DNA of 64,000 nt from Eledone cirrhosa (Eukaryota). The first letter of the stretch is position 1, and each line of letters opens with the position of its first letter. Below the pieces are notes generated by a model. The model ran no database searches. It worked only from the letters and a program-made list of their open reading frames with translations, and had not been told where the DNA came from. A program made the translations under genes and the position numbers. Below are positions 10,555-63,570 of the stretch, in pieces. The stretch spans positions 17,174,001 through 17,238,000 of the forward strand of contig OZ024747.1 in the NCBI GenBank assembly GCA_964016885.1. The letters are read 5' to 3'.

Positions 10555-10756
10555 AACGAAGGAGATGTGGTAAGGATCCAGATGGACCATAACGCACCAG
10601 AGTACTCAATACTTAGGGTACTAGAGTGGGTAATAGGGAAAAGTATAACCCCGACGGCAGAGCTCAAACCGTTTCGACGGCTATTTCTGGACTAAATTAG
10701 AATTTTGTTATTATTATATATATAATAGTCCAGAAATAGCCGTCGAAACGGTTTGG
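10555..10756 (-). mobile_element. Family-B PLE-terminus-like element; inverted arm interrupted by a SINE
   Basis: Homologous to the 14509, 33761, 42446 and 62310 copies; internal inverted repeat CCGTTTCGACGGCTATTTCTGGACTA / TAGTCCAGAAATAGCCGTCGAAACGG. Confidence 0.75.
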
Positions 10757-10940
10757 GGTGGCAGTATCGGTAGAGGGTCGGACGCCATGCTTTGAAGCAT
10801 AGAGTTACGTCCCTTTACGATCTGAGTTCAAATCCCGCTGGGGTTGACTTTGCCTTTCATCCTTGCGGGGTCGATGAAATACAGTACCAGTAATGCACTG
10901 GGTATTTGCTGGCCTTGTGCCCAAAGTAGAAACAATTATA
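10757..10940 (+). mobile_element. tRNA-derived SINE family 1
   Basis: A-box TGGCAGTATCGG, B-box GAGTTCAAATCCC, tail GCTGGCCTTGTGCC...GAAACAATTAT; more than 15 copies in the window. Confidence 0.88.
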
Positions 10941-11185
10941 TATATATATATATATATAAATGTGTGTGTGTGTGTGTGTGTGTGTGTGTTTATATATATG
11001 TATATATGTATATATATATATTTATATGTGTGTGTGTATATATGTAAATATATATATATATATATATATATACATATATACACACACACATATATATATA
11101 TACTTATATACACACACATATATATACATATATACATATATATAAACACACATACACACACACAGACACAAACACATATATATAT

Positions 11186-11410
11186 ATATCACAGAAAAAA
11201 AAGAGAATCAGTGTTGCGACGAATGGAATTTATTGGACATATTACAATCGTTTCTCTGGCGACCAGCTCGAAGCTCGATCGATATGATGATCGAACTTGA
11301 CTCTGAAAATCGCAAGGTCCTCAGATACGTCTTGATTCTCTTTTTTTTCCTGTGATATCATATTCTGCTCGATGAGTATACGGACGCTTTAAGCATCCAA
11401 CACGAATTAC
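11186..11410 (+). mobile_element. PLE-terminus-like element (family C): inverted arm plus 52-nt tail, inside (TA)n
   Basis: ATATCACAGAAAAAAAAGAGAATCA / TGATTCTC(T)nCCTGTGATAT inverted ends; HHR in the inverted arm. Confidence 0.7.
11236..11331 (-). ncRNA. Type I hammerhead ribozyme with extended helix II
   Basis: Minus strand: GACGUAU CUGAGGA C[CUUGCGA...UCGCCAG]A GAAAC GAUU GUA/ AUAUGUC; 7-bp helix I. Confidence 0.65.
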
Positions 11411-11434
11411 ATATATATATATATATATATATAT

Positions 11435-12014
11435 ATTGTTATGCTTTGGGAGGGTCATGTTGCCAATAAGAAACACACGCACCAGCTGCTTTCACTTTAA
11501 TTTATTATAAATTAAATTCATAAAATTAGGAATTTATAAATTTCCAGTTGGTTGGTTGGTTCGACAACCAGACTATTGTTCATATATTGTCAAAGTTCTT
11601 TCGTCACACATTATGTGACCTCTTCAGTGACTGGGGATTCTTTTCTTTGTTTTTTTTGTGTCTCTCCTTTGTCCTGTCCTACGCCAAGATGGTGTAGGAC
11701 AGAACAAAGGAGAGGCACAAAAAAATATAAAAACAAAAACGAAGAAAAGAATCCCCAGTCACTGAAGAGGTCACACAATGTGTGAGGGAAGAACTTTGAC
11801 AATATATGAACAATCGTCTGGTTGCGGAACCAACCAACCCACCAACCGGAAATTTATAAATTCCTATATTTATGAATTTAATTTATAATAAATTGAAGTG
11901 AAAGCAACCGGTGCGCGTGTTTCTTATTGGCAACATGACCCTCCCAAAGCATAACAATATCGGTTTCAACACACGTTTTCAGATAGAGAATCTTGCTAAA
12001 CAAATTCAGAAACG
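11435..12014 (+). mobile_element. Solo 5'-truncated copy of the PLE pLTR in inverted-pair arrangement
   Basis: 11686-12014 matches 27173-27480; 11435-11685 is its reverse complement lacking the last ~54 nt; flanked by (TA)n on both sides. Confidence 0.92.
11589..11631 (-). ncRNA. Minimal type I hammerhead ribozyme of the PLE pLTR
   Basis: Minus strand: GUCA CUGAAGA G GUCACAU-AAU-GUGUGAC GAAAG AA CUU/ UGAC. Confidence 0.7.
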
Positions 12015-12177
12015 AAATATATATATATATATATATATATATATATATATATATATATATATATATATATATATATATATATATATATATATATATATAT
12101 ATATATATATATATATATATATATATATATATATATATATACATATGTGTGTGTGTGTTTATAATATATACATGTTG

Positions 12178-12395
12178 TAAGAGTTTTGGACTTACGATCA
12201 TAATGTCGTGGGTTCGATTCCTGGGTTGCGTGTTGTGTTCTTGAGCAAAACACTTCATTTCACGTTACTCCAGTATAGTCAGCTGAAAATAAGTAGCAGC
12301 AATAGCTGGAGGTTTAACCCTACGATGGACTGGCGTCCTGTCCAGGGGGTAGTCTTCTACTCCCAGATAGCAAGAAGTGTCATCGAACCACTGAT
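12178..12395 (+). mobile_element. tRNA-derived SINE family 2 with a conserved central domain
   Basis: B-box GGTTCGATTCC, GTGTTCTTGAGCAAAACACTT motif and CCTACGATGGACTGGCGTCCTGTCCAGGGG (V/Meta-SINE-like). Confidence 0.7.
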
Positions 12396-61029: not shown

Positions 61030-61430
61030 TCTTGTCTCCCTATTTGAAAATTGTGATTTATAACTCCCGATTGCCACAGCTTAGGTGCCTTTCCAGATCT
61101 ATTGACCAACCGACACACGTGTGTCAGACGTATCCTTGATAGCAGGCGTGAAGGGGGACTTCTTATTACAAAGTCGGCTGTTGGTCTGCTAGAAGACTTT
61201 ATTAGCTGATATGATGTTCAATTTCAATTTAACCCAAACTCCTCCCATCTCGTAAATTTGGACGCCTTTACTGTCTCTACAGCAATATTTCGCACCAACT
61301 TGTGCCAGAAAGTGCAAGAAAGAGGGCTTATTTCTAAGCGAAGCTTTTTAAGCTTCCTTCTTTAATTGGATGGAATCCTGGACCTCTAGATTGAATCAAG
61401 GGGTCATCTTCCACCAGAGGCCACATCAAG
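61030..61430 (-). pseudogene. Decayed RTE (Expander/Rex3-like) LINE fragment from the EN-RT linker
   Basis: TP*FNLEVQDSIQLKKEA...RWEEFG...ANKVF*QTNSRLCNKK...IKD resembles TPWW..EV..A.KLKKEA...WEEFG...ASKRFWQTIRRLRRGK. Confidence 0.6.
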
Positions 61431-62060
61431 CTGCTTTCGTCACATCATTTAATACCTGAAGCAGATACTTATAAGGTGAACAACCTCCACTCCGTTTCAA
61501 AATAAATAGAGAGTCGATTTACGTTCTCTTTACACGAATATTACAGGAGGGAAACTTAATAAGAAAATCAATCCAGATAAGAACAATTCAGAAAGATAAA
61601 TTTAGAGTTCGGGTCACATTTTTTAGCTAAGCAGGGTATAATTCTTACAAAAATATCCAATATTCTACAAATGACTGTGTATGTCTGGGTAACACTCAAA
61701 ATATATACAACAATAAAACGCGACGTATGAGGTTTCCAAGCGAAATTCTCTTTCTTTGAAACTAAACAAGACAGTCTGAACAGAGAAGAAAGAAATGCAA
61801 GACACTGGCAACTACAATTATAATTAAGCGCTGCAATAATTTCTTTTGGATGACATAACTAGGCCCGAAATTAGATTTTTGGCGTCTGACAATACCGTTA
61901 TGAAAATAGATTTAGTTACTGGTAAAGCAATTACAAGGTTAAATGAATATATATCTATATATATATGAATGTATGTGTGAGTATATGTATATATGTATAC
62001 GTGTATGTATATATATATATATATATATATATATATATATATATATATATATATATATAT

Positions 62061-62303
62061 CAAGTAAGTATGTTTTGAAACAGTGAGCGAGTTTGAAATT
62101 AGAAAATATATAGCTTTCACCGTATTTTTAACTAAAGGAATTTTAGCTTGATAACGGGGTTTAGAACCCTCAGATAAATGGAAAAAGATGAGTATTGACG
62201 TACATGTACGTCAATACTCATCTTTTTCCATTTATCTGAGGGTTCTAAACCCTGTTATCAAGCTAAAATTCCTTTAGTTAAAAATACGGTGAAAGCTATA
62301 TAT
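62061..62303 (-). mobile_element. Spacer-less palindrome with arms of about 99 bp plus a 45-nt tail, inside (TA)n
   Basis: Centre GTACA|TGTAC at 62204/62205; one mismatch; unpaired tail 62061-62105. Confidence 0.8.
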
Positions 62304-62309
62304 ATATAT

Positions 62310-62490
62310 AACGAAGGAAATGTGGTAAGGAACCAGATGGACCATAACGCAGCAAAGTACTCAATACTTAGGGTAGTAGAGTGGGTGATAGGAACGAGTA
62401 GGACCCCGACGGCTAATTCTGGACTAAAATGTCCAGAATTAGCCGTGGAAACGGCTTGAGCTCAGCCGTCGGGGTCCTACTCGTTCCTAT
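62310..62490 (-). mobile_element. Family-B element in minus orientation, with tail and inverted arm
   Basis: ATAGGAACGAGTAGGACCCCGACGGCT / AGCCGTCGGGGTCCTACTCGTTCCTAT. Confidence 0.82.
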
Positions 62491-62823
62491 ATATATATAT
62501 ATATATATATGTGTGGGGGGGGTATATGTATATATGTGTGTGTGTGTGTGTGGGTATATGTATGTGTATATATATATATATATATGAATGTGTATATATG
62601 TATCTATATATATGTATGTATATATTTATGAATATATATATATGTATATATATATATATATAATATATATATATATATATATATATATATATATATATAT
62701 ATATGTATATATATATATATATATGTATGTATATATATATATATATATATATATATATATATATATATATATATATATATATATATATATATATATATAT
62801 ATATATATATATATATATATATG

Positions 62824-63570
62824 TACTAGAGTAAAGCATGTCCCGAGAATTATTTGATAATATATATACATCATCTCTATTCGCAATCAGCATAATTAAC
62901 CACACAAAAAAAATCAATTAGACCAAGCTATAAGAATAAAAGCCATCTATGAAGAAATAGTAAATAAATATACTATTGAGGCAACCAATCACACCCTTCC
63001 TGACTTGACCACTACCACGTCACAGTTCTCAACCATTTTGAATTCGTGTTTGGCGGGGGCCTCTTCGGAAAATAATATGTCCTAGCGGGTTTGTTCCCTG
63101 AAGAGCTCTAACACTCGAGTATTTCCTTAATAAGGTATCTCAAAAGTGAGCGAAACCCGAGGGTCGGGATTTAGTGATTTAGTCCTGGTATGTATATAAG
63201 CATTTCTAACATTAATTTTTACCTAATTATGTATGGTTGATCGTATATTTAATTAATTTCCACGTGTTGTTGAAATGTCGCGTAAATATTCTAAAGCGGT
63301 TGTGCGCGAAGACGCCGCGATGGTATATTTATTTACTATTTCTTCATAGATGCCTTTTATTTTTATAGCCTGGTCTAATTGATTTTTTGTGTGGTTAATT
63401 ATGCTGATTGGGAATAGAGATGATGTATATATATTATCAAATTATTTTCTGGACGTGTTTTACTCTAGTATTTTGCTCTGATTGTTTAATTTATTAATTC
63501 TTCATTGAGCCACAACGTGAAAAGTTGCCAAAACACACATGACTTTGTTTAATTGGTGTATGTGTAAATA
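62824..63570 (+). mobile_element. PLE-terminus-like element (family G): 150-bp inverted arm, HHR and tail of about 100 nt
   Basis: 62824-62976 is the reverse complement of 63320-63470; (TA)n flanks. Confidence 0.82.
63093..63170 (+). ncRNA. Type I hammerhead ribozyme, predicted cleavage after C63165
   Basis: GTTCC CTGAAGA GCTC-[39 nt with inner hairpin]-GAGC GAAA CCC-GA-GGG TC/ GGGAT. Confidence 0.85.

Follow-up and report, generated by a model that had tools for sequence, protein, structure and literature searches.

Inverted, one-sidedly tailed insertions in (TA)n tracts of Eledone cirrhosa: ends of Penelope-like elements and their probable non-coding riders

Introduction

Penelope-like elements (PLEs) are the sister group of telomerase. 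In twin priming by L1, both target strands prime cDNA on one RNA, which yields an inversion; non-overlapping arms occur. The position of the second priming site varies and lies upstream of the first cDNA, so the arms are not duplicated. In the insertions described here, by contrast, the second site has a fixed place close to the 3' end, the arms are usually duplicated, and the inversion is the predominant product, not a side reaction.

Among described systems, the Hydra-clade C-terminal EN+ PLEs (Craig et al., 2021, PMC8557442) are much like families A, B, and D below. As presented in the part of that paper drawn on here, they have a single ORF with RWK, DKT, CxCX5C, CxxC, and CxH motifs but no CCHH, a hammerhead in the pLTR, a (TA)n target, partial tandems, an inverted 5'-truncated copy, and a one-sided tail. 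Tails are described there as 30–40 bp and units as generally <3 kb, compared to tails of 77–115 nt in A, B, D, and H and a D unit of 3,118 bp here. Near-obligate pairing of a tailed end (P1) with a tail-less one (P2), TA microhomology, and twin bulged hairpins were not found described in the same part.

Pen2 and Pen3 of Adineta vaga (Arkhipova et al., 2013, PMC3846280) have head-to-head inverted pLTRs with the tail on one of the pair, as here. Their pLTRs include the first ORF codons, as in family C, and act in cis independently of the host, likewise here; target site duplications, on the other hand, are unreadable here within (TA)n. Self-priming on an antisense template was proposed for them, but the arm lengths reported below argue against it. 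The Poseidon element PAc of Anolis, studied in vitro (Frangieh et al., 2024, PMC11167929), has two internal reverse transcriptase (RT) starts that bound the tail, as is proposed here, and also agrees with the proposal in that both target strands are cut and extended, a dimer is predicted, and there is a stem-loop in the start region. PAc however starts without target homology and cuts ATT, while the ends here overlap (TA)n by 2–10 nt, and in the genomic products, unlike in PAc, each site is joined to its counterpart.

Animal non-LTR retrozymes (PMC7229834; bioRxiv 10.64898/2026.07.22.740005) are non-coding tandem monomers with type I hammerheads, like families E (~320 bp) and H (~687 bp), and have been proposed to be mobilised by PLEs. 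H is longer than the 170–400 nt described for them, and F differs in having a tRNA-like fold and no canonical core. The general layout and two start sites are thus already published, judging from the portions of the three PLE papers used here (PMC3846280, PMC8557442, PMC11167929); a literature search found no description of the P1/P2 pairing rule or the bulged hairpin.

Results

Insertions in the window

The window, a 64,000-nt stretch of E. cirrhosa DNA (GCA_964016885.1, contig OZ024747.1, positions 17,174,001 to 17,238,000), had been predicted to contain about eight sequence-unrelated elements with one shared insertion signature in (TA)n. An inverted arm was seen at all 11 sites of this original prediction and at 10555, and the sites sort into exactly eight families, A–H. 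Family A accounts for 14509, 33761, 42446, and 62310, as well as 10555 and a lone arm at 18162; the others have one noted site apiece (B 11186, C 11435, D 20163, E 57231, F 62061, G 42833, H 62824). Three sites (42833, 62061, and 62310) are in reverse orientation. Arm-to-arm identity ranges from 61 of 79 columns (14509) to 98 of 99 (62061), the arms barely overlap at 11186, and the one-sided tails are ~26–115 nt long. Two outer flanks depart from the predicted signature, with (AG)n at 20163 and (TG)n at 42833, and the families are not wholly unrelated, with a small hairpin common to A, B, D, G, and H.

10556–10755, minus strand: family A; tailed arm, then a brief internal fold-back (10726–10755), no tail-less partner
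11187–11410, plus strand: family B, Hydra-type end; tail-less inverted arm 11187–11339, short tailed arm ~11333–11410, tail internally shortened
11433–12016, plus strand: family C, Neptune-type end with minimal hammerhead core; inverted arm 11433–11686, forward arm 11690–11960, tail 11961–12016
14508–14736, plus strand: family A, diverged; inverted arm 14508–14586, forward arm 14593–14659, tail 14660–14736
18162–18268, plus strand: lone tailed arm related to family A, without inverted arm
19864–20049, plus strand: B-related insertion absent from the earlier list, read by eye; inverted tail-less arm and short tail piece, arms apparently non-overlapping
20164–20603, plus strand: family D (Hydra); inverted arm 20164–20314, forward arm 20346–20497, tail 20498–20603, bulged hairpin at 20505
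24145–27481 (5' limit approximate), plus strand: long decayed family C element; RT and C-terminal GIY-YIG pieces with stops and frameshifts, pLTR and tail ~27173–27481
33760–33902, plus strand: family A (Hydra end); inverted arm 33760–33783, forward arm to 33825, tail 33826–33902, bulged hairpin at 33832
42445–42643, plus strand: family A; inverted arm 42445–42506, forward arm 42509–42570, tail 42571–42643
42833–43070, minus strand: family G with hammerhead and Hydra-type hairpin at 42889; tail 42833–42889, tailed arm to ~43000, tail-less arm ~43008–43070
57233–58092, plus strand: family E; inverted arm 57233–57538, tandem forward arm 57539–58016, expanded internal (TA)n, tail 58069–58092, full hammerhead at 57845
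62061–62303, minus strand: family F; tail 62061–62105, arms 62106–62204 and 62205–62303
62311–62490, minus strand: family A; tail 62311–62387, tailed arm to ~62436, tail-less arm ~62437–62490
62822–63567, plus strand: family H; inverted arm 62822–62982, longer forward arm to 63472, hammerhead core at 63098, tail with bulged hairpin at 63476

Exact 22–25-mers from these elements have 332–26,045 genome matches each and a reversed control has none, so the hairpin elements are not due to chance. In three Illumina runs from other samples, which are RAD data and hence represent few loci at high depth, there are 2,448–2,867 reads per run that pass from the family A P2 position into (AT)n, and opposite-strand joints are also present. 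The P2–(AT)n junctions in these independent reads rule out an assembly artefact at the family level. For one window locus, 61900–62560, no spanning contig or read was found.

Family identities

In all eight families the insertions are truncated ends of repeats, four families being tied to PLEs and four probably riding on them. In line with the original prediction of PLE-type elements, longer copies elsewhere in the genome reach RT/GIY-YIG ORFs, in four families. A, B, and D are placed by their motifs, read by eye against the excerpt (section 11) of PMC8557442, as ends of Hydra-clade PLEs. D has an open 773-aa frame with RWK and DKT (locus L293), for which Pfam gave no family match; B has RWR/RWL and DKT in broken frames; and A has an N-terminal piece with DKT (L300) and an endonuclease (EN) end (L032). 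The CxCX5C linker, the lack of CCHH, and CxxC and CxH near the C-terminus were read in D and A, though not from the EN end of B. A (TA)n target, partial tandems, an inverted copy, and a one-sided tail were found in all three.

Family C is placed, likewise by motifs, as a Neptune-type PLE, with CX4CxxC, two Cys inside the GIY-YIG core, and downstream His residues (L306/L308), a DKSG motif in L304, and Pfam matches to GIY-YIG (E=1.2e-4) and RVT_1 (E=6e-4). L304 and L308 are more intact kin of the long C element in the window, where the sole Pfam match from decayed ORFs was RVT_1 at E=0.08. G has a hammerhead and a P2 hairpin, but no link to an RT/GIY-YIG ORF among 24 loci.

The remaining families are non-coding tandem monomers, of ~320 bp (E), ~687 bp (H), and 259 bp (F). 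E and H, with type I hammerheads, are candidate non-LTR retrozymes. F has a tRNA-like fold, and ARAGORN identified a 73-nt tRNA-Ser(CGA) in six of the seven F loci given to it. As putative riders carrying the full PLE signature (P1/P2 ends, inverted arm, and (TA)n), these three are direct genomic evidence of PLE mobilisation.

The elements had also been expected to bear ribozymes, and hammerhead-like folds were found in several families but not all. A strict hammerhead scan was passed by A and G only, and a relaxed fold by A, B (partly), E, and G, but not C, D, or H; at gathering level, Rfam gave no matches. The fold is complete in E. In A there are three stems, but the core is non-canonical; in B stems II and III fold, with stem I read by eye; and in D both core strings are present with no constrained fold. 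Core and stems were read by eye in the window copy of H, while the L302 copy lacks the fold. F has no CTGANGA on either strand of its monomer and so no canonical hammerhead core.

Endpoints and pairing

Every family has two fixed ends, P1, with the tail, and P2, without it. In 49 of 70 family A copies selected by their tails, the inversion begins at a distance of 75–85 nt from the 3' end, and in 42 of these at a single nucleotide; ends are likewise fixed in C, D, E, F, and H, in agreement with a family-specific inversion start. A merging of the inverted arm with the TA flank had also been proposed and is borne out, with (TA)n overlaps of 2–10 nt at 15 of 16 ends (the null for at least 2 nt is 22%).

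Genome-wide, the two kinds of family A end are nearly equal in number (8,650 tailed, 8,599 tail-less), so sites picked independently would give homotypic pairs in half of all insertions. Instead, among 79 pairs (81 rows, less two at locus edges), 70 were P1/P2, one was P1/P1, and eight had an off-site end. A tailed partner was present for all 30 A copies selected by P2, in one case only in a longer locus (L122). The other families follow the same rule: P1/P2 pairs make up 14 of 14 in C, 7 of 7 in D, 7 of 7 in E, and 2 of 3 in H (together 30 of 31; E and H counted by anchors), and 9 of 11 in F. Exceptions are P1/P1 insertions at L115, L130, and L031, another homotypic insertion at L301, and, judged by position, one P2/P2 pair in a list of 100. 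For 15 of the 70 tailed A copies the automated search gave no inverted arm; inspection shows one in at least three of these. Inverted duplication of host flanks, at five of 67 A insertions against 2.7% of 262 control pairs, with three direct matches, was not established.

In A, B, D, G, and H, a hairpin with a CTC...GAG base and a 2-nt bulge in the stem lies 4–8 nt 3' of each readable endpoint (8 of 8 sites), with differing upper stems; its rate in shuffled sequence is 0.0007 per 7-nt slot. The one at the B P1 was predicted beforehand and then found, with the CTC...GAG base in five of seven read-through copies. In C, E, and F it was found at none of seven sites, though the pairing rule holds there. 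By eye, the same motif is also seen in three coral and sea-cucumber Hydra consensi. The original prediction had TA microhomology directing priming; the overlap is there, but it is too short to fix the sites alone, and the conserved hairpin likely does so.

Arm lengths and shared alleles

Among 65 family A insertions, the tailed arm extends at least 5 nt further 5' in 15 and the tail-less arm in 17, with 33 within 4 nt of each other. At L032 the tail-less arm is ~1,980 bp, compared to ~900 bp for the tailed one. The A arms end 130–149 nt from P1 in 122 of 148 cases, and the arms of other families likewise have 5' clusters, at ~233 nt (B), ~170 nt (G), and 150 nt (F) from P1. The base at the A 5' cluster is G in 10, T in 46, A in five, and C in four, and a cap-derived G is not clear. 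Arm-length skew in B and G is biased, as these samples were picked by likeness to the window copy. In seven insertions (four A, two B, one C) the arms do not overlap, the tailed one stopping before P2, which runs counter to the expectation that each insertion leaves a hairpin.

Rare alleles were compared in small samples (8–57 insertions). Those in both arms outnumber those in one arm in C (53 vs. 42) and D (27 vs. 22), but not in A (29 vs. 100), E (9 vs. 24), or F (6 vs. 18). Minor alleles common to both arms exceed expectation in C (61 vs. 16.5) and D (11 vs. 3.7), while discordant shared minor alleles number 12 in C, three in D, and 44 in A. One allele, present in two of 100 listed tailed A arms, recurs in the partner arm of 15 copies out of 25.

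An apparent sign of separate templates, a G/A mismatch between the two arms, was rejected: the A allele is carried by two of 100 listed tailed arms, so that cases in one arm only fit recurrent mutation, and the 15 concordant copies of 25 point the opposite way. A ~97-bp indel between the L032 arms is no subfamily marker, since the deletion is private (one of seven copies); it lies between direct repeats.

Discussion

A model for paired priming

The best reading of these patterns, and a probable one, is that both target strands, once nicked, prime on a single RNA, each at a site marked by a hairpin. The insertions are 5'-truncated copies of endonuclease-bearing PLEs and, likely, of non-coding riders. 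The GIY-YIG domain may nick both strands of a (TA)n tract. Each of the two hairpins of a transcript would be bound by its own RT molecule, and each 3'-TA end would pair with the UA-rich site immediately upstream of the hairpin in question. Synthesis from both sites would proceed toward the 5' end of the RNA, with the copy begun at P1 usually displacing the one begun at P2, and end joining would then link the two cDNA ends. The common short stumps could be run-off copies of the transcript's 5' pLTR, and long arms could come from read-through tandem transcripts. Priming twice, part of the original prediction, is supported here in that it agrees with pairs of one tailed and one tail-less arm and with arm lengths that vary independently, and the anole PLE protein, a predicted dimer, does cut and extend both strands and start at two internal sites bounding the tail (PMC11167929). 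Several points count against this reading. Allele sharing can also come from post-insertion conversion between inverted arms, or from activity of a single subfamily at any one time; homotypic insertions exist; C, E, and F pair by the rule without the bulged hairpin; and the anole protein started without target homology, with no strand preference for a site (PMC11167929). Strand displacement on a shared RNA is only inferred.

If the dimer instead carried two transcripts, in an ordered cycle with the first strand primed at P1 and the second at P2, arm lengths and overlap would be independent without any need for strand displacement, and likeness between arms would reflect shared source loci or later conversion. 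The discordant shared minor alleles (C 12, D 3, A 44) and the L032 indel could be taken this way, but rare alleles are often in both arms, the deletion and the G/A mismatch have the explanations given above, and there is no obvious force behind a switch of sites; we consider two RNAs unlikely.

Still less probable is that the tail-less end is made by processing rather than priming, both arms reaching P1 or beyond and one being trimmed to P2 by the endonuclease or by end joining; a published form of this idea is the "EN-mediated resolution" in the part of PMC8557442 used here. It too would give one-of-each pairs, the short TA overlap at P2 suits microhomology joining, and a few P1/P1 insertions exist. 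However, P1 and P2 alike are followed by the one hairpin, about equally far from the endpoint and with an upper stem that varies, and both ends of the tail are RT start sites in vitro (PMC11167929).

Fold-back self-priming, in which a single strand, either an antisense RNA (PMC3846280) or the first cDNA, loops back as its own template and gives a palindrome, would account for alleles common to both arms and for the many apices with 1–4 nt overlaps or small palindromes (in F the apex is nearly fixed). It predicts one arm class that is always longer and always overlapping, where family A has 15 against 17 and seven insertions have no shared arm sequence, and a tail cannot come from a tail-less template. 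Non-overlapping and long tail-less arms largely refute this reading, and we regard it as very improbable. That the palindromes arose by chance, or are artefacts of assembly or of fold-back in long reads, is a reading for which only the unspanned locus at 61900–62560 speaks; it has next to no probability given arms that differ by 1–23%, endpoints constant over thousands of loci, and the junctions and opposite-strand joints in reads from other samples.

Priming by both strands on a single RNA could, more tentatively, be the normal Hydra-type route, hairpin-docked and open to any RNA with two sites; we hold this broader proposal to be possible, at somewhat short of even chances. The hairpin, twice per pLTR and kept from corals and sea cucumbers to the present genome, would set the start 4–8 nt upstream, a docking that may be likened to the boundary element positioning the template in telomerase RNA. 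Any two-site RNAs, including ribozyme- or tRNA-bearing non-coding monomers, would then be converted to hairpins in (TA)n.

Significance

To learn how PLEs form inverted copies and come to have a tail on one side only, the part of PMC8557442 drawn on here calls for an in vitro system. Thousands of natural products in this genome give a rule, one P1 arm with one P2 arm, that argues against the published fold-back idea and points to a defined RNA element, and the intact D ORF at L293, with its pLTR, allows a direct test. The putative non-coding riders are evidence from the genome for retrozyme-like and tRNA-bearing monomers being moved by PLE machinery. For E. cirrhosa itself, a 3-Gb genome has been seeded with many thousands of hairpins, whose transcription could give double-stranded RNA.

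Hairpin sites in the window and genome

The window (GC 32%) is rich in (TA)n. Masked self-comparison and arm alignment found inverted arms at all 11 of the sites where the original prediction had claimed them, and these fall into eight families, A to H, with head-to-head arms and a one-sided tail in (TA)n. Family A is the most frequently mentioned below, and its sites in the window are:

14509, 33761, 42446 and 62310, plus 10555 and 18162: family A

In the 3.0 Gb genome, exact patterns gave at least 8,650 tailed A arms and at least 8,599 tail-less A junctions, with lower bounds of 26,045 matches for C, 3,477 for E, 1,950 for D, 470 for H, and 332 for F; reversed-pattern controls gave none. 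The fixed 3′ ends are called P1 (tailed) and P2 (tail-less). At P2 of A, 2,448–2,867 reads per run pass from the A reference into (AT)n in three Illumina RAD runs from other samples, and opposite-strand joints are also found among the reads listed for these runs. No record spans the window's own locus (61900–62560). The hairpin feature is real.

Identity of the families

Inside the window, a decayed Penelope-like element (PLE) at ~24145–27481 has a 3′ end that family C matches. Its copies elsewhere have a reverse transcriptase (RT), a CX4CxxC linker, and a GIY-YIG endonuclease (EN), the tail being the ORF start, and by motif it is Neptune-type. Family D is the terminal repeat (pLTR) of a tandem unit of 3,118 bp, whose open frame of 773 aa carries the Hydra motifs of PMC8557442. 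Family A leads upstream to a Hydra EN end (locus L032) and downstream to a Hydra N-terminus (L300). A targeted search for read-through copies of B found eight loci with one continuation, with Hydra-type ORF pieces in six of the seven examined. E (~320 bp) and H (~687 bp) are tandem monomers that contain hammerhead motifs and do not code for protein. F, a tandem monomer of 259 bp, carries a 73-nt tRNA-like fold and lacks a canonical hammerhead core. G folds as a full hammerhead; its 24 loci showed no ORF link.

The tRNA call in family F (L299:1108–1180) is tRNA-Ser(CGA), only 73 nt long and without the long variable arm usual for tRNA-Ser. F arms mostly end 150 nt from P1, directly 3′ of the T-arm, which suggests that RT halts at this fold. 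A few tailed A arms start at the predicted cut site of that family's non-canonical hammerhead, 97–100 nt from the 3′ end (L088, L091, L093, L119), a hint that it may cleave, and a weak one because the search pattern itself begins at that point. In family G (window 42742–42833, L337–L360), the tailed end often adjoins (TG/CA)n, not (TA)n, and the tail-less end adjoins AT-rich sequence.

Fixed ends and their pairing

Contig 1 supplied the first 70 of the 8,650 tailed A matches. The inverted arm begins at one nucleotide in 42 of these, with seven more within 75–85 nt of the 3′ end; in 15 no inverted arm was found by the script and six have another start, several of these 21 being chaining or edge errors. 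Families C, D, E, and H have two main 3′ ends each and F has three; inversion starts are fixed per family. Measured against read-through copies, 15 of 16 sites have ends that overlap (TA)n by 2–10 nt (null for 2 nt or more, 22%); the remaining site reflects a substitution in the copy used, and another copy has 2 nt.

Tailed and tail-less A ends are equally common; if ends were chosen freely, one pair in two would be homotypic (P1/P1 or P2/P2). Among 79 A pairs, 70 are mixed (P1/P2), one is P1/P1, and eight have an off-site end, while A copies selected by P2 have a tailed partner in 30/30. Pairs picked by a pattern common to both arm types, at loci chosen by spacing and not by end type (L293–L312), are mixed in 30 of 31 cases (C 14/14, D 7/7, E 7/7, H 2/3). 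Family F has 9/11 mixed, and B and G have 14/15 and 15/17, both in samples biased toward the window copy. The exceptions are at L115, L130, L031, and L301, and one P2/P2 pair among the matches listed.

Comparing the arms of 65 mixed A pairs gives 33 within 4 nt of each other, 17 with a longer tail-less arm, and 15 with a longer tailed arm. The tail-less arm reaches ~2 kb in L032 and extends beyond a full unit in L297 and L304; the tailed arm ends before P2 in seven insertions and begins at P2 in L195. Arm lengths that differ in both directions, and arms that do not overlap, cannot arise by folding back of either strand, and the simplest explanation is that priming took place twice, as separate events. 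A arms stop 130–149 nt from P1 in 122/148 cases, adjoining an initiator-like word. Runs of A or T at the apex may reflect untemplated additions.

One RNA or two

Alleles common to both arms exceed those expected from independent draws in C (61 vs. 16.5), D (11 vs. 3.7), and A (14 vs. 5.4), and rare alleles occur in both arms 53 times and in a single arm 42 times in C; the corresponding counts in D are 27 and 22. Differences confined to one arm predominate in A, E, and F, as expected from mutation after insertion. Such sharing could also result from subfamily bursts or from conversion between the arms; it therefore favors a single RNA but does not prove it. The pairing rule also needs no further assumption if one RNA has two sites. 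Twin priming of some form is very probable, and twin priming on one RNA reasonably likely. The original prediction, that PLEs prime twice, was largely right, given the one-of-each pairing and arm lengths that argue against fold-back.

A bulged hairpin behind the ends

All eight readable ends of families A, B, D, G, and H have, 4–8 nt behind them, a hairpin whose base is CTC/GAG, whose 3′ side bulges by 2 nt, and whose upper stem varies; it is absent from the seven ends in C, E, and F (0/7), and its rate in shuffled sequence is 0.0007 per slot. A prediction for P1 of B, unseen beforehand, held, with CTC 4 nt after the overlap and a GAG partner in 5/7 copies. In the displayed portions of the PMC8557442 supplement, reading by eye showed the motif at the 3′ end of Hydra-2_Ajap, in two places at the 5′ start of Hydra-1_Ajap, and at the end of the record preceding Hydra-1_Obim, which by its order is Hydra-2_Amil. 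It was not seen at the displayed ends of Hydra-1_Ajap, Hydra-1_Amil, or Hydra-1_Obim, nor where Hydra-1_Crog starts. Its putative role is deduced from position only. Similar words follow P1 of E and the second P2 site of F, and F has one word behind two of its ends; these are candidate signals for families without the bulged hairpin.

Other repeats and nearby features

1–353, 1890–2153, 3481–4169: minisatellites, periods 28, 32, and 45
9982–10180, 10240–10465: two related elements terminating in (TA)n
10759–10936, 12964–13152, 15436–15555, 16955–17343, 21533–21720, 34930–35134, 38840–39042, 49650–50207, and others: SINE-like repeat
19335–20049/20661–21302: inverted duplication (95%) around a D insertion
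48856–49233 (−): 125-aa open stretch

The inverted duplication takes in ~630 bp of host DNA and a portion of a B-related element, and (TA)n tracts lie at its axis; a similar, smaller one is at L043:6550–7150. A flank-match test on 67 A insertions gave five inverted and three direct matches, vs. 2.7% in controls. The SINE-like repeat (~180 bp) is abundant, with 34 matches in 180 kb of sampled genome, and unrelated to the hairpin families. The two related elements are probably a ninth PLE-type family; the first lacks an inverted arm and has a minimal hammerhead core at 10066. Two more Hydra-type ORFs and one C-like EN ORF (L031:1067–3600; L126; L326:151–1023) represent further PLE families nearby and show that many PLE insertions are nested within (TA)n tracts that they share. 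The 125-aa stretch has no Pfam match and is similar to the endonuclease region at the C-terminus of a non-LTR element.

Comparison with published systems

The layout is already known. PMC8557442 describes an inverted 5′-truncated copy with a one-sided 30–40-bp tail, the tail being attributed to EN-mediated resolution, and states that Hydra, Naiad, and Neptune target (TA)n. PMC3846280 shows this layout too, with self-priming on an antisense template as its proposed mechanism. PMC11167929 describes a tail bounded by two RT start sites, cutting and extension of both strands, starts without target homology, and a protein predicted to form a dimer. Movement of retrozymes by PLEs is proposed in PMC7229834 and bioRxiv 10.64898/2026.07.22.740005. 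In the accessible parts of the literature outside subscription papers and Repbase, no statement of obligate one-of-each pairing or PLE twin priming was found, nor any bulged hairpin or tRNA-bearing PLE rider. What is added here is a quantitative pairing rule, a case against fold-back, and a testable RNA signal.
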